DNA of 42,047 nt from Escherichia coli (GCF_051903065.1 NZ_CP178441.1); one strand, 5' to 3'. Positions 1,973 to 41,844 are shown, counted from the stretch's first letter. Numbers and translations: made by a program. The notes: a model not told the origin generated them from the sequence alone.

Positions 1973-2562
1973 TGCGTCCTCAACTCTGGGTTATTGCTGG
2001 GCCTAATGGTGCAGGAAAATCTACCCTAGTTAAGCGACATATCCTTGGGAAAATAGAGGTTGTTAACCCTGATGATATTGCGCGGGAACAAGGTATAAGC
2101 AATCGAAAGGCAGGAGAGCAGGCACTTTTTCTGCGCACGGAAAATATCAAAAATAGATGTACTTTCGCTGTAGAAACGACACTCACAGGAATGGGGGAGA
2201 TTAAGTTAATGCAGCTTGCTGCAACTGCAGGTTACAAAATTAATTTAATCTATGTGGGGGTGAAAGATGTAGGAATGTCAGTAGCTCGCGTTAACCAGCG
2301 TGTAAGCCTTGGTGGTCATAATGTGCCTGTTGATGATATTTTCAGACGATACGAGCGTTCTGTAACCAACCTACCTAAAGCTATGGCCGTGGCTGACCGG
2401 GTATGGGTATTTGATAACAGTTATAACAGACGGCGATTACTTTTCCGCACAGAACAAGATAAAACAAAGTTCATTTCTAATGATTTGCCTGATTGGTTTA
2501 AAAAAGTCGCTGGGACAGAGATTGAGCAGGCCAGAATGAAAAAGAAGAAATTAAGTCGTTAG
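1972..2562 (+). CDS. P-loop kinase of zeta-toxin/AAA_33 type (putative toxin)
   Basis: Walker A GPNGAGKST near the N-terminus, followed by a VVNPDD segment and an HNVP...RRYERS segment typical of zeta-like kinases. Translationally coupled to the upstream small ORF. Confidence 0.55.
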   Translation: MRPQLWVIAGPNGAGKSTLVKRHILGKIEVVNPDDIAREQGISNRKAGEQALFLRTENIKNRCTFAVETTLTGMGEIKLMQLAATAGYKINLIYVGVKDVGMSVARVNQRVSLGGHNVPVDDIFRRYERSVTNLPKAMAVADRVWVFDNSYNRRRLLFRTEQDKTKFISNDLPDWFKKVAGTEIEQARMKKKKLSR

Positions 2563-2579
2563 TTAAACGTCCAAGGATA

Positions 2580-2606
2580 AACCGGCTATAAGCCGGTTTT
2601 TTTTTG
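2580..2606 (+). terminator. rho-independent terminator (AACCGGCT-ATA-AGCCGGTT plus T-run)
   Basis: 8-bp perfect stem followed by nine T residues directly after the 1972..2562 stop. Confidence 0.7.
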
Positions 2607-2660
2607 ATAATAGATGAAAAGTGAGTAGTTTTATGTTTCTTTATATCGAAAAAAGTGTAT

Positions 2661-2706
2661 TTTAGCAGCTAAAATTATTGACCTGCATACGTGGTTTAGC
2701 TAAACT
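2661..2706 (+). promoter_or_regulatory. korA-type promoter: OB (2661..2673), -35 TTGACC (2678..2683), KorA operator GTTTAGCTAAAC (2694..2705) overlapping -10 TAAACT
   Basis: Operator sequences and arrangement match the RK2 korA promoter (OA over the -10, OB just upstream of the -35). Confidence 0.7.
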
Positions 2707-2763
2707 TTGTTTGCGGTGTCATTAAGGCGTCTAGTTAAAGGTGTTGAACCGGGAAGTAAATTT

Positions 2764-3108
2764 ATGACGACTGTTAATAATAATGATCCGCATGTTGCCA
2801 AAACGGGCAATGAAAAAAAACGCCTGACTAATGAGGTATTTGCAAGAGTTACCCGAAGCCTGAATGTTGGTAAGCAAACGCTTGATATCGCTTACGGCGT
2901 ACTGGTTGAAGGAAGACCGCAGAAATATTTTGTTGAAACGCTGGATATTTCTCGCGGGGCTGTTTCTCAGGCAGTTAACAGAGTGTGGGATGCCTATAAA
3001 CAAGAAGTACCTGACGGTTTTGTGCGTATTGAAGTAGTGTTACCGGAGCGGCAGGCTTTCATTGTTAAAAAGTGGGCTGACGAGGCAAAACGTAAACAGG
3101 AAGAATAG
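2764..3108 (+). CDS. korA: KorA global repressor (ORF track start 2707 is probably an upstream extension)
   Basis: Strong similarity to recalled RP4 KorA: HTH segment GAVSQAVNRVW and C-terminal VLPERQAFIVKKWADEAKRKQEE. Confidence 0.8.
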   Translation: MTTVNNNDPHVAKTGNEKKRLTNEVFARVTRSLNVGKQTLDIAYGVLVEGRPQKYFVETLDISRGAVSQAVNRVWDAYKQEVPDGFVRIEVVLPERQAFIVKKWADEAKRKQEE

Positions 3109-3110
3109 CG

Positions 3111-3875
3111 ATGGCTATGAAAGTATTGGTTACAGCAAATCAAAAAGGTGGTGTTGGCAAGACTTCCACCCTGGTTCATCTGGCATTTGATTTTTCAGAA
3201 CGAGGCAAGCGGGTTGCTGTAATCGATATGGATACCCAGGGCAACGCCTCTTTTACCCTGAAACAGTTCTCGTCCGGCATTAAAGCGAATGAAATGTGGG
3301 GCGAGATCGAGCCAACTCGCTTTACCCAAATGCCTGAGAGCGGAATTTCTCTCATTGAGTCAGATATTCAACTAGCAAACGTAGAAAAATTAAATCTGCC
3401 GGAAATGGTGAAGCAGTTCCGCCATAACCTGCAGCAGCTGGCGGACAGTGGCTTTGACGTCTGCCTGATTGATACTGCGCCTACGGTTAACAATGCGCTT
3501 ATAGTTGCGCTGGCGAGCGCTGATTTTGTGGTATGCCCTATTGAGCTTGAGGTGTACTCAATTCAGGGTATTAAAAAAATGCTGACCACTTTCACCCAGG
3601 TGAAACGCAAAATGAACAGCAAGCTGGAATTTATTGGTATGGTTCCAAGTAAGGTAGATGGCCGCAATCCTCGCCATGTAAACCACCTGCAGGAGCTGCA
3701 GACGGCCTACCCTACGTTAATGGTTCCTGTGTCTGTCGGGTTGCGAAGCAGCATTGCTGATGCACTGGCTTCACATGTCCCTGTCTGGAAAATCAAGAAG
3801 ACAGCAGCACGTAAAGCCAGCCAGGAAATGAGAGCACTGGCCTGTCATGTTTTTACTAAGATGGAGATTGCATAA
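3111..3875 (+). CDS. incC: IncC / ParA-family partition ATPase
   Basis: Deviant Walker A KGGVGKTS and a ParA-like fold signature. Immediately precedes the ParB homolog, with stop/start overlap. Confidence 0.85.
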   Translation: MAMKVLVTANQKGGVGKTSTLVHLAFDFSERGKRVAVIDMDTQGNASFTLKQFSSGIKANEMWGEIEPTRFTQMPESGISLIESDIQLANVEKLNLPEMVKQFRHNLQQLADSGFDVCLIDTAPTVNNALIVALASADFVVCPIELEVYSIQGIKKMLTTFTQVKRKMNSKLEFIGMVPSKVDGRNPRHVNHLQELQTAYPTLMVPVSVGLRSSIADALASHVPVWKIKKTAARKASQEMRALACHVFTKMEIA

Positions 3876-4888
3876 TGACTAAAAAAAATTCTTCCGGCCT
3901 TGGCCTTGATACCGTTGGTGATCTCTCCGACTTTCTTGATGCGTCTGCAGGTGCTGAGGGTAAACCACTGATGCTGGACGTTGATGCGATTGATCCCGAT
4001 CCTGAACAACCGCGTAAGCAGGACAACCCAGGGTTCTCAGAGGAATCCATTAAGGAGCTGGCTGATACCATTAAAGCGCGTGGTGTGAAAATGCCTGTCT
4101 CCGTTCGCGAGAATCCGGAGCAAGCGGGGCGCTATATTATTAACCATGGAGAACGTCGCTGGCGAGCCAGTAAAGTGGCCGGGAAGAAACAAATTCCCGC
4201 TTTTATCGATAATGACTATAGCGACGATGATCAGGTCATTGAGAACATCCAGCGTAATGACCTGACGGCGCGTGAAATTGCCGTACACATTGGCCGCAAA
4301 CTGGCTGAGGGGGTATCAAAATCTCAGATTGCTAAACGGCTTGGCAAGTCGCCAGCGTTCGTAACCCAACACGCAGCGTTGCTGGACCTGCCGGATTGTA
4401 TAGCAGATGCTTTTAATAAAGGTTCAATCCGTGATGTTACCGTAGTTAATGAGCTGGTAACGGCTTACAAGCAAGACCCGGAAGAAGTTCAAAAACTGCT
4501 TGAAGAGAACGAGGGTGAAGACATTACCCGTAGTGCGGTGAAAGTTTTCCGTGAGTTCCTGGACGAAAAAGAATCCAGCAAGCGTGATCCAGACACCATT
4601 GACGCCTTCAATGGCCGTACCGATTCGGAAGCTGCCGAAGATGATACGGACGGCCACGATGATAACGATGTGACCGATAAGGTCCGTAAGACGCCAGAAA
4701 AGGAAACCGATCCTGATAAATTCAAAAAGGCTATTGTTATCGTTGAGTACCTGGGGGAGCAGGGCCGCCTTATCCTGACCAAGCGCCCAAGTGAAGAAGG
4801 GCTTGCCTGGATTAAGTTTGATTCAACTGGTGTAGAAGAAGAGCTAAATCTCGAAAACGTGAAAATAATTTGCCTTATTGAAGGATAA
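3875..4888 (+). CDS. korB: KorB / ParB-family DNA-binding partition and global regulator protein
   Basis: ParB box HGERRWRAS and HTH segment SKSQIAKRLGKSPAFVTQH. Eleven cognate 13-bp OB palindromes are present on the replicon. Confidence 0.85.
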   Translation: MTKKNSSGLGLDTVGDLSDFLDASAGAEGKPLMLDVDAIDPDPEQPRKQDNPGFSEESIKELADTIKARGVKMPVSVRENPEQAGRYIINHGERRWRASKVAGKKQIPAFIDNDYSDDDQVIENIQRNDLTAREIAVHIGRKLAEGVSKSQIAKRLGKSPAFVTQHAALLDLPDCIADAFNKGSIRDVTVVNELVTAYKQDPEEVQKLLEENEGEDITRSAVKVFREFLDEKESSKRDPDTIDAFNGRTDSEAAEDDTDGHDDNDVTDKVRKTPEKETDPDKFKKAIVIVEYLGEQGRLILTKRPSEEGLAWIKFDSTGVEEELNLENVKIICLIEG

Positions 4889-4909
4889 AAGGTATCAATT
4901 TCCGCTCAG

Positions 4910-4937
4910 AATCCCGCAGTCGCGGGATTTTTTTTAT
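4910..4937 (+). terminator. rho-independent terminator after korB
   Basis: Stem ATCCCGC/GCGGGAT with a 4-nt loop, followed by a run of eight T. Confidence 0.7.
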
Positions 4938-4958
4938 TAATATTATTTATTGCATAAT

Positions 4959-4971
4959 TTTAGCCGCTAAA
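4959..4971. promoter_or_regulatory. KorB-type operator TTTAGCCGCTAAA
   Basis: Perfect OB consensus. A degenerate KorA-like half site TGTAGCTAAACA lies at 4981..4992. Confidence 0.6.
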
Positions 4972-5086
4972 ATGTATAGATGTAGCTAAACAAAATTTAA
5001 CCTGAGGGCTATGTAGTTCCGTCAGGGCAGAGAATTCATGGTTCCTGGCGGCTATTTCCTAAAAACGCATCATTACCGGTGATGTT

Positions 5087-5370
5087 ACTTATGAGTAAGG
5101 TGACGCAGGGAGAGTTAAGAACCATACTCAACATGCAAAACAACATTAGGAATGAGCGGCAAAAACACCAATATCTGTATCAGAGTACTGACATCCTTAT
5201 CAACCTGGCTGGGATGAGGGATTGAGCGTGACACAATAGCTCTTAACTTATCGTAGCTGGAAGAAAGCCCTATCTTGGTCCTTTCGACAAACAGCGCCTG
5301 AAAGAAGCCCACAAACGCATTTTTAACGGCATTTATCCATAGGGCCGGAGAATACCTGGATGATGGTTAA
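5087..5370 (+). pseudogene. possible frame-disrupted gene remnant (Fic-like N-terminal helix motif) in a 0.5-kb ORF-free region
   Basis: Short frames encode ...FDKQRLKEAHKRIFNGIYP(stop) and, one frame over, AGEY.... Deleting one base near 5340 would give IYPWAGEY, which resembles the Fic N-terminal helix. No intact ORF spans 4972..5468. Confidence 0.25.
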
Positions 5371-5468
5371 AGAGTAGTTGGGTAATCAGTTGCCGATTCA
5401 ACTTAAAAATAGCAGTTAGCCCTATCTCAATACAGACGGTTGATGATAACACAAGGAGTAACACCGAC

Positions 5469-5822
5469 ATGAGCAAACAGCGTGTTCTTGTCATGAACGG
5501 CCAGCGAGTGCTGCAAAGCGAAGAAGCTGGAAAATGGAAAAATGACAATGTTGATAGAGCTGGCAGCATAAAGCCAGGCATTTACCCGCTTTATCTGTCC
5601 AAGGGGCCGGATAAAGCCAGCTCTTATAATGGGCCGATTTTACACGCAGATAAGCAATCAGTATATCAGCAGGTAGGTAAGCAGATTTTCAAGCATGATC
5701 GCCAAAATTTCGATAAACTGCCAGAAGTAGGTACGGAAAAAAGTATTTCGTATGACCAGACTTCCGGTAAAGCTCAGGTAGCAGCAGCCACAGAGAAGCA
5801 GGGCCGGAAGTTCTCCAGATAG
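5469..5822 (+). CDS. hypothetical protein (kfr/upf-position)
   Basis: GGAG RBS before the ATG. Position corresponds to the kfr/upf54 block of IncP-1. Confidence 0.5.
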   Translation: MSKQRVLVMNGQRVLQSEEAGKWKNDNVDRAGSIKPGIYPLYLSKGPDKASSYNGPILHADKQSVYQQVGKQIFKHDRQNFDKLPEVGTEKSISYDQTSGKAQVAAATEKQGRKFSR

Positions 5823-5843
5823 CGAATAGCGTAGGAGTCCCGG

Positions 5844-6524
5844 ATGAAGCCAACTACCCCATTTAAAAATCCCGGCGCGGTCCGGGATACCTCCTCCCCT
5901 CATCAGCAGCTTGATATTACACCTGATCTTCTCGCAGAGTCGGAAGCCGTAAATATCCAGGAACAGGTACAGCAACTGCATGACGAACAGCAGCAGTTGA
6001 TCAATGACCCTTCCCATTTGCAGGATTCGCAAACTGACGCCGGTAACATTGAGCAGGAATATAAGGATGCGGTAGAGGCGGCAGTAGCGGATAAAGAAAC
6101 GCAGGCAGAAAACCTTGAAAACCGGCTGGAATCGCTGATAGACAAGCAGGAGGCGGTTCTGCAGCAGATGATGAGTCGTCAGCCTGGGTTTTTGGCTCTG
6201 CCCGGCCAGAAGGCAAAATGGAAGTCACAGGTGCAACAACAACAGTCATTGCTGAGTCGCCTGCAGAACCGGCTGGAAACTGTCAAAGAGATTCATGACG
6301 GGATGGGGTTACATGGCCCGCGTATACACGAACTTGCGACGGCCAAAGTGCGGCATGATAAACCAGAGCTTGCCGAAGGATGGGATGAAATGCGGGCTGC
6401 ACAGCGAGCGCATGAGAATCTCATGCGGAAGCAGGCGAAAGAACAGAAAGAAAAGCTACAAAGAGAGCAGGCTCCATCACTAAGTAAAGGGAATGGTCTG
6501 AGCCTTACACGAACAATAACTTGA
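5844..6524 (+). CDS. Q/E-rich coiled-coil protein (Kfr-like position)
   Basis: AGGAG RBS. Highly charged, Gln/Glu-rich sequence consistent with long alpha-helical coiled coil, in the position where IncP-1 plasmids carry kfr genes. Confidence 0.5.
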   Translation: MKPTTPFKNPGAVRDTSSPHQQLDITPDLLAESEAVNIQEQVQQLHDEQQQLINDPSHLQDSQTDAGNIEQEYKDAVEAAVADKETQAENLENRLESLIDKQEAVLQQMMSRQPGFLALPGQKAKWKSQVQQQQSLLSRLQNRLETVKEIHDGMGLHGPRIHELATAKVRHDKPELAEGWDEMRAAQRAHENLMRKQAKEQKEKLQREQAPSLSKGNGLSLTRTIT

Positions 6525-8519: not shown

Positions 8520-8600
8520 TTGTGTAGACTTTCCTTGGCGTAAACACCGGCGAAAGCCGGGCAGGACATGTAAAGTAGGCCCACCGTAAACGGTGCTTCT
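8520..8600 (-). other. oriT, with nic region on the minus strand (CTTTACATGTCCTG|CCCGGCT; nick predicted between 8562 and 8561) and adjacent hairpin
   Basis: Minus-strand sequence closely matches the recalled RP4 nic region CTTCACCTATCCTG|CCCGGCT, and CCAAGGAAAGTCTACA is identical. A 5-bp stem hairpin lies at 8582..8595. Confidence 0.75.
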
Positions 8601-8688
8601 ACTTTACCTTCCCTTATTCGCAGCGGGGCTGCTCAACGGGAGTCCTGCTCTGCGAGGCTAATCGGCTACCGCCTATATGGAGATCGAG

Positions 8689-16930: not shown

Positions 16931-17116
16931 ATGACTGATACTAATGCAGTAATTCGCCCTGATGTTAACGACGCAATACAGGAAAAATATCGCGATCTGA
17001 TGACACCGGGATATGTAGTCGAATTTTCACCCGATGAGGCTGATCTTGTGGGGGCATTCGAAGATGATGCGCTGAATGTACGTGACGCATACGAAAGCGC
17101 TTTTGATGCGGAGTAA
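16931..17116 (+). CDS. small strongly acidic protein (61 aa)
   Basis: RBS GAGG before the ATG. Very high Asp/Glu content. Lies immediately upstream of the ArdC-like gene. Confidence 0.45.
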   Translation: MTDTNAVIRPDVNDAIQEKYRDLMTPGYVVEFSPDEADLVGAFEDDALNVRDAYESAFDAE

Positions 17117-17121
17117 GGGCC

Positions 17122-19239
17122 ATGGCAGAAGCTAAAGCGAAAAAACCATTTTATGAGATTGTGGCTGAAAACCTGATAGCCCAGCTTAAAGAGGGGACTG
17201 CTCCATGGCAGAAACCATGGAACCCCGGCGCTCCTGGTGTCGCATTGCCTATGAACCCTACGACGGGTAAACGTTATAAAGGCATTAACGCTATTCACCT
17301 TATGGCGCAGGGTTATAGCGATCAACGTTGGATGACCTATAAGCAGGCGACGGCTGCAAATGCGCAGGTAAGGAGAGGCGAAAAAGGCACGCCGATCCAA
17401 TACTGGAAATTTACTGAGGAACGCATCAAACGCAACGATGATGGTAGCGTTGTGCTCGATAAAGACGATAAACCGGTAAAAGAAACTGTCCAACTGGAGC
17501 GACCGAAGGTATTTAACGCAGTTGTGTTTAATGCGGAGCAGATTGACGGTCTACCGCCGATGGCCGTTCGCCAAGATAAGAGCTGGAACAGTATTGAACG
17601 TGCTGAATCTATTCTCGAAGCCTCTGGCGCGAAAATCTCTCATGACCAGGTTGACCGGGCTTTTTACCGTATGTCTACAGACAGCATTCATTTGCCGCAG
17701 CAGGCTTCCTTTCCAAGTGCTGATCGTTACTATGCCACTGCACTTCATGAATTGAGCCACTGGACAGGTCACGCATCGCGTCTTGATCGTGACCTGTCTC
17801 ATCCTTTTGGAAGTGAAGGTTACGCCAGAGAAGAACTACGCGCAGAGATTGCCAGTATGATCATTGGCGATGAACTGGGGATAGGTCATGACCCTTCCCA
17901 GCATGTTGCCTATGTAAAATCTTGGATTAAAGCCTTACAGGATGATCCGCTGGAAATTTTCCGTGCAGCAGCTGATGCTGAAAAAATCCAGGGGTTCGTG
18001 TTGGGCCTTGAACAACAGAGAATACAGGAACAACCGGTAACTCTGGAAAGAGAGCAGCGCGAAAAAGAGCATAATGAGGTAATGGCTGAGGTACAGCGGC
18101 TGACTAACCCGCAGATTTTCGATGCGGAAACAGCTCAACTCTATCATTTCACATTCATGACACTGGAGCAGACAGCTGAGGAAGCTGGTTACGTTACCTA
18201 TTACAGCCGTGGCACTGGTGAGCTGGGCGAAGAAACTATTCGGGTTAATTACGAAGACAGTAATGGAAATACTATTCCTGTTCATACTGATGTGGTTGGG
18301 CGCGGAAAAGCATTGACATATATCGGTGATGAGCGTGTCCCCGGAACGGGATTTTCATCCGATAATGAATGGCAAAGCAATGCTCTTAAAACCGCTTTCG
18401 CCAGCATGGATAACAACCTAACTTTAGTCGCTAAAAAAGTTCATAGTCAGATTGAAAATATCAGTGGAGACCCGCGAGAGTTACCGCAGGATGTTAAGTT
18501 TCCTAAAAACTGGTGGCCTAATTCCAGTTTTCTGGCGTCGACCCCAAGTGTGGAGAACTCAAAAGCAGCTGCAGAGGCTGATATGACCACTAAAACTGAA
18601 ACGTCTATTACATCAGCGCAGCAGCGCCAGTATCGTGCAGAGAAATTTATTCTTTCGAATCTCGATAGTGGTCTTTCTAAGCACGTTCAGAATATGAACC
18701 GTCGCCAGCTTACGTTGTCACGAAACGTTCTCTATGATGCTCAAAATAGCAATCAGGATAGTGATTTTTGGCAGCGTAACAAGGAATTTCATTCTTCGTT
18801 CAGTCAAAACTGGAATGAGGCTCAGGACAAGATCAAGAGCGCATACCGTGAGATTGATTTTGCATTATCACTTCTACCAGAGCCGAAATATAACATTGTG
18901 GAAAATCCTGGTCAGAATGAGCATGTGAATATAATCATGCAGACCAACAGTGCAGTTAAGGCGCTGGCCGCTGTTAACGAAGGGGATAATCGTTCAATTT
19001 ATGACTCACGTCTCATCAATAACGGTAAGGTCGATCTGAATGACCTGCAGAACAATTTTTATCAAACACTTGAAGCAGAAAAAGCAGCCTTAAAGCAAGG
19101 TATTATCAAGCCTGATGATGAGATTAGCGTGCTCCCACCAAGAGAAGCACAGGAATGGTATCAAGACCGTGTTGAAGGCTTGACGTATAGGAAATTGAAA
19201 AACCAGTCGATACCATTGTCCACGCCTTATGCCACGTGA
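17122..19239 (+). CDS. ardC: ArdC-like antirestriction protein (N-terminal ssDNA-binding domain plus HExxH metalloprotease) with a roughly 400-aa C-terminal extension
   Basis: N-terminal ...APWQKPW... ArdC-type segment and HExxH motif ALHELSHWTGH. Total length 705 aa versus about 300 aa for canonical ArdC. Confidence 0.7.
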   Translation: MAEAKAKKPFYEIVAENLIAQLKEGTAPWQKPWNPGAPGVALPMNPTTGKRYKGINAIHLMAQGYSDQRWMTYKQATAANAQVRRGEKGTPIQYWKFTEERIKRNDDGSVVLDKDDKPVKETVQLERPKVFNAVVFNAEQIDGLPPMAVRQDKSWNSIERAESILEASGAKISHDQVDRAFYRMSTDSIHLPQQASFPSADRYYATALHELSHWTGHASRLDRDLSHPFGSEGYAREELRAEIASMIIGDELGIGHDPSQHVAYVKSWIKALQDDPLEIFRAAADAEKIQGFVLGLEQQRIQEQPVTLEREQREKEHNEVMAEVQRLTNPQIFDAETAQLYHFTFMTLEQTAEEAGYVTYYSRGTGELGEETIRVNYEDSNGNTIPVHTDVVGRGKALTYIGDERVPGTGFSSDNEWQSNALKTAFASMDNNLTLVAKKVHSQIENISGDPRELPQDVKFPKNWWPNSSFLASTPSVENSKAAAEADMTTKTETSITSAQQRQYRAEKFILSNLDSGLSKHVQNMNRRQLTLSRNVLYDAQNSNQDSDFWQRNKEFHSSFSQNWNEAQDKIKSAYREIDFALSLLPEPKYNIVENPGQNEHVNIIMQTNSAVKALAAVNEGDNRSIYDSRLINNGKVDLNDLQNNFYQTLEAEKAALKQGIIKPDDEISVLPPREAQEWYQDRVEGLTYRKLKNQSIPLSTPYAT

Positions 19240-19503
19240 GCCTTTCTGCTTTTCCCACCACTCCGGTGGTTTCCCTCTCTGTATGGTCGATTTTTATACC
19301 GTAACAGGCTGTTTTTTATACTTTCACCGATTCCCGGGCACACTTAGCCTGTGTCAGGCCGGCATATACCTCAGTAGACTGATATCCCGCGCGTTTTTCT
19401 TCAGCCCTGATACATTCAGCCCCGCAATGGCCCGGCGGTATACCATCCGGCAGCCACACAGCACGCATTCGAACGGGTCACGACTCAGGAACTGTTTCAC
19501 CAT

Positions 19504-21291
19504 TTGTGCATAGCACACTTTCGCCACTGGTTCATGGAGGACGCTGACAGCCCGGATGAACTGAAAAGCGCTCTGGATGCGCTTGGCCCAGAACCGGGAG
19601 ATAATGAGGCTGTTTTCCTTGGTGAAGATGGAGGGCGAATTCTTCCAGAATTCAGTCTGAACGTTACGCAGGAAAATACTCCAATCAATGTCCCCTACAA
19701 AGAACGCAATGAAGCTAAAGCGCTTGGGGCAAAATGGGATCGAACCGAACAGACCTGGTTTGTACCAAAAGGTGTATCTCTGGATAAATTTGCAAAATGG
19801 GTTGGTGGGCCAACTGCAGAAAACAATTCATCTGTCGTATCTGTGAAAGAAGTAACGCCAAAAGTGGGTGAGCGTCAGAATCTGGCTGTCCCTTATAAAG
19901 ACCGCGCAGAAGCTAAAGCAGCTGGTGCTAAATGGGACAAAGAGAAAAAAACTTGGTATGCCGAAGCTGGGGCAGATATGCAAAAACTGGCGAAGTGGAA
20001 ACCGGAAAATGTGGTGATCGAACAGTCACCGGCCATGACGCTAAAGGAGGAAGTAGAAACCGCGCTGAAAGATATTGGGTGCATCCTTGATGCCGATACT
20101 GACAAAGGACAGAAACATCCAATTATGGATGGTAAGAAGCATCGGATCACGGTAGAGGGAGACAAGAAAGGGGAAAAGTCAGGTTTTTATATCATCTATA
20201 CTGACGGCCATCCTGCGGGCTTCATGCAGAACAACCGCACCAAAGAAGAGTTACGTTGGTCTTCCAAGGGAAATGTGATGTCCGACGAAGAAAAAGCGCT
20301 CCTGCGGGCGCAGGCTGCTCAGAAACAGGCCGAAAAAGCGGCACAGCAGCAAAAAGACCATGAGTCCTCTGCAAAGCGTGTTCAAAAGCAGCTCGCTAAA
20401 CTCAATGAACCTCAGCAGCAAACTGCTTACCTGAAGAAGAAAGGGCTGCAGGTACATAAAGGTGTGTTCACTGATAAGGACGGACAGAAAACCTTTATTC
20501 CTGCTTATGATGTCCATGGTAAGCAATGGACTATGCAGTACATCAACGAGGACGGCACAAAACGTTTTGCCAAAAATGCTCGCAAAGAGGGATGTTTCCA
20601 TGTCATTGGCGGGCTGGATGCGCTTAAAAAATCTCCGGTGTTGATTGTGGCCGAAGGTTACGCAACGGCAGGGAGCATCACAGAGGCTACTAATATACCA
20701 ACGGTCGCCGCCTTCGATTCAGGTAATCTGGAATCTGTCGCGAAAACGCTTAAAGAAGCCTACCCCGATAAGCCAATCATCATTGCCGGTGATGATGATA
20801 TTTCTCAGTCATGCAAAATGAAGGTGAAGGATAAAGCCAGTGTAAACGTCGGCAGGGAAAAAGCGCTGGAAACAGCGAAAGCTGTCGGCGGTGTGGCTGT
20901 GTTTCCAGTTTTTGCTAAAGGTGAATTACCTGGGAAAGACGAACTCAGCCAGATTAAACCGGCGGCGTATCTTGCACACCAGACCGCCTCGCGCAAACTG
21001 GAGGCCCATACGAGCGGTGATAAGCCACTCTCGGATGCCGAAGTGAAGGTTCTGCAGGCAGCACAGCTATCGGAAAAGCAGCTTGATATTATTCGCCGCG
21101 CTGATCGTTACACTGACTTTAACGATCTGGCCGTAAATAGTTCTCTTGGCCGGGAAGGTGTGGCGATGCAGTTGAAAGCCGTCATTGCTGACCAGCTGAA
21201 TAAAAAACAGCAGCAGTCACAGGTCCAGATCGAAGAGAAGAAACTCGTTCAGGAAAAAGAGAAAAAACGGACCATTCGCCACGCTATGTAA
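19504..21291 (+). CDS. traC: TraC-like DNA primase (Toprim domain); start uncertain (alternative ATG at 19534)
   Basis: Toprim segment VLIVAEGYATAGS...IIIAGDDD. Two N-terminal repeats of the ...AK..GAKWD...K.W motif. Confidence 0.75.
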   Translation: MCIAHFRHWFMEDADSPDELKSALDALGPEPGDNEAVFLGEDGGRILPEFSLNVTQENTPINVPYKERNEAKALGAKWDRTEQTWFVPKGVSLDKFAKWVGGPTAENNSSVVSVKEVTPKVGERQNLAVPYKDRAEAKAAGAKWDKEKKTWYAEAGADMQKLAKWKPENVVIEQSPAMTLKEEVETALKDIGCILDADTDKGQKHPIMDGKKHRITVEGDKKGEKSGFYIIYTDGHPAGFMQNNRTKEELRWSSKGNVMSDEEKALLRAQAAQKQAEKAAQQQKDHESSAKRVQKQLAKLNEPQQQTAYLKKKGLQVHKGVFTDKDGQKTFIPAYDVHGKQWTMQYINEDGTKRFAKNARKEGCFHVIGGLDALKKSPVLIVAEGYATAGSITEATNIPTVAAFDSGNLESVAKTLKEAYPDKPIIIAGDDDISQSCKMKVKDKASVNVGREKALETAKAVGGVAVFPVFAKGELPGKDELSQIKPAAYLAHQTASRKLEAHTSGDKPLSDAEVKVLQAAQLSEKQLDIIRRADRYTDFNDLAVNSSLGREGVAMQLKAVIADQLNKKQQQSQVQIEEKKLVQEKEKKRTIRHAM

Positions 21292-40225: not shown

Positions 40226-40540
40226 GGGGCACATATTTTTTTTATGACAGTTGAGGGGCGCTTTATTGCGCCCTTCTTTGTTTAGGACGAGTTTAGCCCG
40301 CACGAAATTTTGTTTAGGCGTATAGAGCTTAACCAGACGTTAGAATTATCCCCTTAATTTGTGGATAAGTCTGTTAATATCCCGGTAAAGATACGACATT
40401 TAAGGGGCGGAAAGGTGACACTTGAGGGGCGCTATTATGACATATGAAGGGCGCTATCATGATATTTGAGGGGCGGAAAGGTGACACTTGAGGGGCGCTA
40501 TTATGACATATGAAGGGCACTATCATGACATTTGAGGGGC
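40216..40540 (+). repeat. oriV iterons: nine copies of TGACA-N-TTGAGGGGC-like 15-17-mers (two at 40216..40259; seven at exact 22-bp spacing from 40394 to 40540)
   Basis: Repeat sequence matches the RK2 iteron consensus. 22-bp periodicity read directly. The first iteron overlaps the trfA stop codon. Confidence 0.85.
40360..40368 (-). promoter_or_regulatory. DnaA box (TTATCCACA on the minus strand); a second near-consensus box at 40544..40552
   Basis: Exact 9-mer consensus read between the two iteron groups. Confidence 0.55.
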
Positions 40541-40680
40541 GCTTGTGGATATGATTTTCCATGTTTTTCATATTGATACAGTTGTTTTCCACAACCCTCT
40601 AACCAGATCTTAACCGATCTTTTAACCGATCTTTTAACCATTTCTAACCAAAAGAAATAACCTGTTATTTTAACCGGCGT
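40541..40680. other. oriV A+T-rich region with tandem AACCGATCTTTT-like repeats (candidate DNA unwinding element)
   Basis: Approximately 12-13-bp direct repeats between 40601 and 40672, immediately after the iterons. Confidence 0.5.
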
Positions 40681-41376: not shown

Positions 41377-41844
41377 ATGAATAATGAAGTTATCGTTACT
41401 GCTCGTAAACTTACAGATTATGAAGAACGCCTGATGTTTATGCCGAAATTCTTCGGCCAATATTGGCTTTTTGTGGAAAACCACACTTATAACTGGATGC
41501 GTAAATTAAGTCCTGAAAATAAAAGCCAATATTTAAGTAGTGCGCTGGATAAAATTGAAGCCCATTACGATGGTGGTGAGTGGGATTTTTATGAACTTTC
41601 AAATGGTGGTTATTTTATGGCACCAAACAGCCGTGAACATTACCGTATTTCTGTCCAGGGTAATTACTTTGACGGTTTGTTAAGCGCAGAAGCTGCAGGT
41701 ATGGTGGCAACCAGTTTTGTGCTGGCCCAGCTTGCTAATTCTAATCTGCCATTTTCAGAAAAATGCTGTGCTTATTATCATCAGCTGTTTGATTACGCCA
41801 GCGGGCATCAAGAATATGCGCAGTTCCGTGCTGCCATCGATTAA
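41377..41844 (+). CDS. klcA: KlcA (ArdB/KlcA-family antirestriction protein); ORF track start 41299 is an extension through the promoter
   Basis: Similarity to recalled RK2 KlcA (...YELSNGGYFMAP..., AEAAGMVATSFVLAQLA). GGAGA RBS before the ATG at 41377. Confidence 0.8.
   Translation: MNNEVIVTARKLTDYEERLMFMPKFFGQYWLFVENHTYNWMRKLSPENKSQYLSSALDKIEAHYDGGEWDFYELSNGGYFMAPNSREHYRISVQGNYFDGLLSAEAAGMVATSFVLAQLANSNLPFSEKCCAYYHQLFDYASGHQEYAQFRAAID

Follow-up and report, generated by a model that had tools for sequence, protein, structure and literature searches.

The ArdC protein of R388/pSa (IncW) is a stand-alone protein of ~297 aa that joins an ArdC-N domain to an HExxH gluzincin metallopeptidase. 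ArdC has been described as resembling the N-terminal 300 aa of the RP4 protein TraC1 (Belogurov et al., 2000, as quoted in PMC7213743 and PMC8744291). RP4 TraC1 combines primase activity with conjugative transfer to the recipient cell (PMC8744291), and the N-terminal part of TraC1 is reported to be needed for its transport into the recipient (PMC8744291, PMC7213743).

Fusions of this kind are documented. A count by Gonzalez-Montes et al. (2020) gave 84 plasmid proteins in which DUF1738 and TOPRIM are fused – nearly all of them from MOBP plasmids, and about half from IncP1 – as well as 203 plasmids that encode the two domains on separate proteins (PMC7213743). Iyer, Burroughs, Anand, de Souza & Aravind (2017) described such fusions as polyvalent proteins, in which ArdC-N serves as an N-terminal header (PMC5512222). 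The combination of ArdC-N, a zincin-like metallopeptidase (MPTase) and Toprim is therefore an already known ArdC-associated architecture.

Here we analyze an Escherichia coli plasmid gene that appears to encode an ArdC-like protein with a long C-terminal extension. We are highly confident that its 705-aa open reading frame (ORF) is the 5′ portion of a traC gene, truncated by a 351-bp fragment from the oriIS end of IS1294.

An ArdC-like reading frame on an IncP-1-like plasmid

The window (the whole stretch of DNA that was analyzed, 42,047 bp) is a complete, IncP-1-like conjugative plasmid of a lineage that is common in Enterobacteriaceae. Its annotated backbone includes TrfA, Ssb, TrbB-L, TraJ/K/L/M, homologues of KorA/IncC/KorB, KfrB/C, KleE and KlcA, and the window also contains 22-bp oriV iterons and a traJ-II RNA motif. 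An IncX backbone, which had been guessed from the plasmid size and a TopB neighbor, was rejected because annotation and synteny are IncP-1-like. Separately from the gene discussed below, the plasmid has an anti-restriction gene of the klcA type. Apart from two SNPs and a 351-bp insertion, the window and NZ_CP127008.1 (41,696 bp) are colinear (41,696 + 351 = 42,047).

Comparison with R751 by tblastn revealed a colinear series of matches to TraG (67% identity; the coupling protein), TraF (57%), the traE region (53%; topoisomerase III), TraD (53%) and TraC (75%/49%). The TraD match is a 61-aa gene directly 5′ of the 705-aa ORF (Table 1), and an identical 61-aa gene elsewhere (L005) carries the Pfam domain TraD_b_g-type.

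A plausible Shine-Dalgarno sequence, GGAG, precedes the 705-aa ORF. The preliminary description of this DNA had placed an ArdC single-stranded DNA-binding segment and an HExxH metalloprotease motif, ALHELSHWTGH, in the N-terminal 300 aa of the product, and both assignments were confirmed. Pfam identified the ArdC-N domain (PF08401, aa 10-126), and the ALHELSHWTGH motif (aa 206-216, with HELSH at aa 209-213, nt 17746-17760) falls within a zincin-like MPTase-PolyVal domain (PF18818, aa 159-284). R388 ArdC (6sna, 6i89) is the sole protein of solved structure in the PDB that the sequence matched (aa 4-292, E ~3e-48), and its two-domain unit of ArdC-N and HExxH metallopeptidase aligns end to end with this segment. 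The remaining ~400 aa, in which no motif had been recognized, indeed gave no match in Pfam, NCBIfam or PHROG families (aa 300-705); NCBIfam returned zero matches for the 705-aa protein as a whole and likewise for the 1272-aa protein described below.

Table 1. Features of the traC locus. Positions are counted from the first nucleotide of the window; residue numbers refer to the native 1272-aa protein.
Feature	Position	Strand	Evidence
traD homologue, 61 aa, directly 5′ of traC	16931..17116	+	53% identity to R751 TraD (tblastn)
705-aa ORF, ATG to TGA	17122..19239	+	ORF listing of the window
traC 5′ part, native codons 1-687	17122..19182	+	100% identical to NZ_CP127008.1 CDS WP_031626063.1
ArdC-N ssDNA-binding domain (ArdcN), aa 10-126	17149..17499	+	Pfam PF08401, E 1.3e-33; matches R388 ArdC 6sna/6i89
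Zincin-like metallopeptidase MPTase-PolyVal, aa 159-284	17596..17973	+	Pfam PF18818, E 9.9e-48
Module 1, conserved alpha+beta domain, aa ~338-430	18133..18411	+	Homologue alignment and own HMMs
Module 2, conserved helical domain, aa ~493-587	18598..18882	+	Homologue alignment; HMM; AlphaFold2 pLDDT about 90-97
IS1294 (IS91 family) fragment, 351 bp, nt 1-351 from the oriIS end	19183..19533	-	351/351 nt identical
18 codons from the IS (TYRKLKNQSIPLSTPYAT) and TGA closing the 705-aa ORF	19183..19239	+	Translation
traC 3′ part, native codons 688-1272 and stop	19534..21291	+	Identical to aa 688-1272 of WP_031626063.1
Two DUF5710 repeats, aa 738-777 and 801-844	19684..20004	+	Pfam PF18974, E 2e-16 each
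Toprim primase core (Toprim_3), aa 1057-1138	20641..20886	+	Pfam

The reading frame as an interrupted traC

A megablast search of PLSDB with the 705-aa ORF identified about 100 near-identical plasmids, and all of the matches ended at query base 2062 – 56 nt short of the stop codon. In NZ_CP127008.1 and about 100 other plasmids, the gene is a single 3819-nt CDS with the same start codon that encodes 1272 aa (WP_031626063.1). The 705-aa ORF ends at 19239 because the IS1294 fragment interrupts this 3819-nt gene, exactly between codon 687 (TTG) and codon 688 (ATG). The IS1294 fragment contains four in-frame stops, and translation ends at the first of these after the fragment has supplied residues 688-705 (TYRKLKNQSIPLSTPYAT). 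Removing 19183-19533 in silico regained every residue of the 1272-aa protein. As the length of the insert is a multiple of three (351 = 3 × 117), the 5′ and 3′ parts of the gene share one frame. The 3′ part was listed as a downstream ORF of 595 aa that begins at a TTG at 19504, inside the IS.

The severed 3′ half has the characteristics of a primase. Beyond its two DUF5710 repeats and Toprim core, it contains EGYATA at 20653-20670 (aa 1061) and an acidic cluster, AGDDD, at 20785-20799 (aa 1105), and it matches PHROG DNA primase families (E 3e-57). EGYATA is reportedly the signature of P/I-type primases, as described by Strack et al. in 1992. Beyond the Toprim core, at 21115-21126 (aa 1215), lies DFND, an instance of the DaN- motif defined for Toprim primases (PMC5512222).

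BLASTP aligned both ends of the restored protein with R751 TraC (1448 aa): its N-terminal part was 62% identical over aa 7-391 (E 4e-149), and its aa 738-1269 were 48% identical to R751 aa 912-1446 (E 7e-152). We found no alignment of the central ~440 aa with R751 TraC, either by BLASTP or with our own HMMs, so orthology in this region rests on position and flanking domains. Based on the gene order traG-traF-traE-traD, the identity to R751 TraC, and the domains and motifs of the 3′ half, the gene is identified as traC, encoding a predicted TraC1-type ArdC-primase fusion. Like TraC1 of the IncP-1 plasmids RP4/RK2 and R751, it follows traG-traF-traE-traD in the Tra1 operon, and its product has the same domain order – ArdC-N and MPTase, then two DUF5710 repeats and a Toprim domain with EGYATA at the C-terminus.

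Several features distinguish this gene from its described relatives. The native protein is shorter than R751 TraC (1272 versus 1448 aa) and is missing the ~215-aa N-terminal leader of the latter, whereas its central region contains two conserved modules that R751 TraC is without. Unlike traC of R751 and RP4, the gene in the window is broken by an IS1294 fragment. The ArdC-like ~300 aa and the Toprim domain with EGYATA and the acidic cluster belong to one polypeptide in the insert-free frame, but an uninterrupted fusion frame is lacking in the window, and the Toprim motifs are found in the downstream ORF and not in the 705-aa ORF. Similarly, although the 705-aa ORF shares both the ArdC-N domain and the HExxH metallopeptidase with R388/pSa ArdC, it does not represent a stand-alone, two-domain protein of ~300 aa: the native gene encodes 1272 aa, and the ArdC unit is the N-terminal header of a fusion with a C-terminal primase.

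As in polyvalent proteins generally, the header is followed by an MPTase hub domain and a Toprim domain with the DaN- motif, and uncharacterized domains are interspersed. By its predicted domains, the native 1272-aa protein is thus a polyvalent fusion of ArdC-N, a zincin metallopeptidase, a lineage-variable central region, two DUF5710 repeats and Toprim. By the same comparison, the 705-aa ORF is an incomplete gene, the front 54% of an IncP-type traC (a TraC1-type DNA-binding/primase fusion), and the 705-aa form is one that exists only through the IS insertion. Its odd architecture is almost certainly a mutational artefact, as opposed to an evolved architecture or a new anti-defence protein.

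These results change the reading of the C-terminal extension. The extension had been taken to belong to a complete protein, but the IS1294 fragment at 19183-19533 cuts a 1272-aa gene. A match to a known ArdC-associated domain had been named as grounds for rejecting that view; there is one at the level of the gene, which joins ArdC-N and MPTase to Toprim, but the 400 aa themselves match no named domain. The suggestion of an ArdC-N header that brings extra cargo into recipients agrees with what has been published on TraC1 and polyvalent proteins (PMC5512222, PMC7213743, PMC8744291), except that the cargo is not the 400 aa. In place of an extra effector or targeting domain, these residues represent the central region of TraC, and the extra domain is the Toprim primase encoded downstream.

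A fragment of IS1294 within traC

We compared the insert with the 1688-bp IS1294 element in MF510496.1. It comprises only 351 of the 1688 bp and includes the last 177 nt of tnpA, whose sense strand is the minus strand, so that sequence identity assigns it to IS1294 but a complete element, with intact transposase gene and terIS, is not present. The same sequence matches IS1294 in about 2,900 plasmids; a 351-bp remnant of the oriIS end is unusual. No further IS1294 sequence was found in the 42,047-nt window, and any transposase must therefore have acted in trans.

The junctions follow what is known of IS91-family insertion, in which a CTTG/GTTC target adjoins oriIS, the target site is not duplicated, and the terIS of IS1294 is cleaved at GTTC (PMC13181058). 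A CTTG target at 19179-19182 abuts the first base of the IS at its oriIS end, and the target bases were neither duplicated nor lost. The other end of the fragment reads ...CACTGGTTC, with an internal TGGTTC/GTTC, whereas the genuine terIS of IS1294 ends ...CCGTGGTTC; the final 6 nt of the element, TGGTTC, also occur internally, and it is at this internal copy that the fragment stops.

The 351-bp product may have arisen by rolling-circle transposition that ended prematurely at the internal GTTC, or it may reflect insertion of the full element followed by deletion between the two copies of TGGTTC. We considered whether the internal end is a pseudo-terIS hairpin and rejected this, as it has no terIS-like fold above background (-3.6 kcal/mol, z -0.2, versus -10.9 kcal/mol, z -2.1, for the real terIS) and shares only the TGGTTC hexamer. 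With no terIS-like hairpin, and with the hexamer alone in common, neither premature termination nor later deletion is favored. A search of 100,044 representative genomes for IS1294 breaking off right after this GTTC gave 0 matches, and so nothing points to the 351-bp piece as a recurrent mini-element.

The central region of TraC

Aligned with the native protein, the ~400 aa without a recognized motif correspond to the TraC central region (aa ~293-737). Pfam gave no match for this region, whether the query or 22 homologues were searched, and PHROGs were likewise negative for aa 301-687. When 1.84 billion representatives were scanned exhaustively with HMMER, only 30 relatives emerged, nearly all of them TraC-like proteins of 850-1950 aa, and only two of these (67% and 44% identity) covered the whole region. 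A word-indexed search of 5.8 billion proteins with the central region returned one match.

The preliminary description had proposed domain-boundary prediction and a structure search for the extension. AlphaFold2, run on the homologue alignment, predicted three units with pLDDT >90 – aa 312-437 (helix-helix-four strands-helix), aa 493-587 (helical) and aa 672-722 (a small helical unit) – connected by linkers of low confidence. The structure search yielded no PDB match for the first two of these, and significant Foldseek matches in AFDB50 were almost entirely to conjugative-element proteins of the TraC, ArdC or primase type. One uncharacterized protein was also recovered by Foldseek. The IS insertion lies inside the predicted first helix (aa 673-690) of the third unit.

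Homologue alignments define two conserved modules within this region (Table 1). Module 1, with the consensus GY..ESWxNL...A...G...Y.D..G...P..T.L..DGKA.T...G.RVPGTG.TSD.EWQ..AL, is present in almost all of the relatives; two of them (P0026 and P0027) contain two copies, and in another (P0024) it lies next to LPD7. Module 2 is restricted to a subset, with HMM matches in P0001, P0002, P0009, P0010, P0015 and P0026 and a weak match in P0019. Neither module matched Pfam, including the LPD families of polyvalent proteins, or the PDB, and both are almost confined to proteins of the TraC-like or polyvalent kind in which a primase or LPD7 follows. As two confidently folded modules without a family assignment, they could join the catalogue of polyvalent-protein domains.

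A more speculative proposal, which we consider rather doubtful, combines two ideas. Modules 1 and 2 may be undescribed, independently folding domains that act in their own right in the recipient, for example by binding partners or countering defences, and the 705-aa protein that keeps them might still work as a stand-alone ArdC-type establishment factor; and premature rolling-circle termination at the internal GTTC may have made the 351-bp insert, as a ‘short-ended’ IS1294 product – the mirror of the known one-ended read-through.

Predicted effect of the insertion and alternative explanations

By analogy to RP4 TraC1 and R388 ArdC, the native protein would bind the transferred single strand through its ArdC-N domain and enter the recipient with that strand. 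There, as proposed by analogy to RP4 TraC1, the Toprim domain would prime synthesis of the complementary strand, and the ArdC part may also shield the DNA from type I restriction, again by analogy. The insertion is predicted to add 18 foreign codons and a stop, giving a product that would keep ArdC-N, the peptidase and modules 1-2 and would lose the DUF5710 repeats and the primase. Though in frame downstream, the primase half probably has little or no expression, since it is without a recognizable ribosome-binding site: we found no convincing Shine-Dalgarno sequence before 19504 (computed) or before 19534 (by reading the sequence). From the sequence of the locus, the plasmid primase is thus expected to be lost or strongly reduced, while ArdC-type functions are possibly retained in the 705-aa product.

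Translation of the two halves as separate, functional products – a 705-aa ArdC-type protein and a DUF5710-Toprim primase starting at 19504, 19534 or later – strikes us as unlikely, even though several observations speak for it. The downstream half is unbroken and, with an insert that is a multiple of three, still in frame, so re-initiation may yield a separate primase; the resulting pair would mimic both RP4's shorter TraC2 product and plasmids that encode the two domains separately, as the 203 plasmids with DUF1738 and TOPRIM apart do (PMC7213743). Split forms also persist in another allele of this gene, Q501* (4 contigs; 500-aa and 748-aa ORFs), and a weak promoter-like site occurs in the insert at 19293-19322. 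Such sites are, however, no commoner in the insert than in shuffled sequence, and the truncated allele is a singleton. Moreover, the 705-aa ORF stops about 265-295 nt upstream of 19504/19534, and neither position is preceded by a good Shine-Dalgarno sequence, making translational coupling unlikely.

The gene could also be taken at face value, as a complete anti-restriction protein of the ArdC family, to whose C-terminus an effector or targeting domain of ~400 aa has been added; the frame is open from ATG to TGA behind its GGAG, NCBI names the product an ‘ArdC family protein’, and residues 312-437 and 493-587 are conserved and have confident predicted folds. We regard this as extremely improbable. 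The C-terminal 18 aa and the stop come from IS1294, the supposed extension stops within the predicted helix at aa 673-690, modules 1 and 2 are almost confined to proteins with a primase or LPD7 downstream, and on 818 contigs the same DNA encodes an uninterrupted 1272 aa, as against 1 contig for the truncated allele. At the sequence level, an extended ArdC is already refuted by the in silico removal of the insert. It is equally hard to credit that reads containing repeats were mis-assembled so as to place the 351-bp piece within traC. IS1294 is plentiful on plasmids of Enterobacteriaceae, the truncated allele is unique, and the plasmid has no other IS1294 sequence, all of which would fit such an artefact; but the junctions obey IS91-family rules exactly, with oriIS at CTTG, target bases intact and GTTC at the other end, and junctions this clean are unexpected from a chimeric assembly. 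Truncation of traC by the IS1294 fragment accordingly remains our preferred explanation.

traC alleles in the plasmid population

In a cluster table, the exact 705-aa product occurs on 1 contig (42,047 bp) and the intact product on 818. A separate exact look-up of contigs encoding the 705-aa protein returned none, where the cluster table lists one, and neither PLSDB nor the RefSeq complete E. coli genomes contain the insertion junction. The truncated traC is a private and probably tolerated mutation of the loss-of-function or split type. The analysis corrects the reading of its record (WP_439691078.1/XXC66344.1, ‘ArdC family protein’): both the automatic NCBI annotation and a reading of the sequence by itself present an unusually long ArdC where the gene is really an insertion-truncated traC.

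The Q501* allele, in GCA_001621145.1, represents a second and independent break in the gene. Together with the IS1294 fragment, it suggests that inactivation of traC is tolerated in these hosts. That traC of this lineage has been broken at least two times independently is compatible with enterobacterial hosts not needing the primase fusion.

Truncation of traC by an IS1294 fragment

The segment that interrupts traC, the gene for a TraC1-type ArdC-primase fusion, is an exact match to the oriIS-proximal 351 bp of IS1294 (19183-19533). Its far end is formed by an internal TGGTTC, the same six nucleotides that close terIS. The fragment may be a rolling-circle product that was terminated prematurely, or it may be a deletion derivative; we found neither a transposase nor further IS1294 sequence elsewhere on the plasmid. 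With the insert set aside, we identified only two base differences (at 3590 and 23499) from NZ_CP127008.1, a reference plasmid with an intact traC; the fragment has therefore entered an otherwise clonal plasmid very recently.

The same gene is broken independently in a second allele, Q501*, which is present on four contigs. There it is called as an ArdC-type ORF of 500 amino acids and a DUF5710/Toprim ORF of 748 amino acids.

Internal start and C-terminus of TraC

Directly C-terminal of the ArdC/MPTase unit (the ArdC-N and zincin metallopeptidase domains), traC has an ATG in frame at codon 321 (18082), closely preceded by a weak GAGG. Met 321 is also the first residue of P0003, a metagenomic gene call, and the internal TraC2 start of RP4 traC lies in roughly the same place.

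The last 19 amino acids of native TraC (...EEKKLVQEKEKKRTIRHAM; 21232-21288) include many Lys/Arg residues and in this resemble C-terminal T4SS substrate signals. If a T4SS signal sits there, the 705-amino-acid product of the interrupted gene would not be transferred.

Other plasmid features

The traJ-II RNA motif is located upstream of traJ, and the oriV iteron array lies just downstream of trfA. The presence of a klcA/ArdB-type gene indicates that the plasmid has a second, predicted intact anti-restriction gene.

Features of the plasmid and of the second broken traC allele
Feature	Location	Strand	Details
traJ-II RNA motif (Rfam RF01760)	window 8559-8659	+	97-bit match, full-length
oriV iterons, IncP-type	window 40395-40542		~6.7 tandem copies, 22-bp unit GACAyTTGAGGGGCG...
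klcA/ArdB-type 'antirestriction protein' gene	window ~41377-41844, carried over from reference record	+	WP_023352239.1 in reference plasmid
Independent broken allele, same traC gene	locus L005 (GCA_001621145.1 LVRO01000141.1) 2429-6247		C>T at nt 1501, giving Q501*
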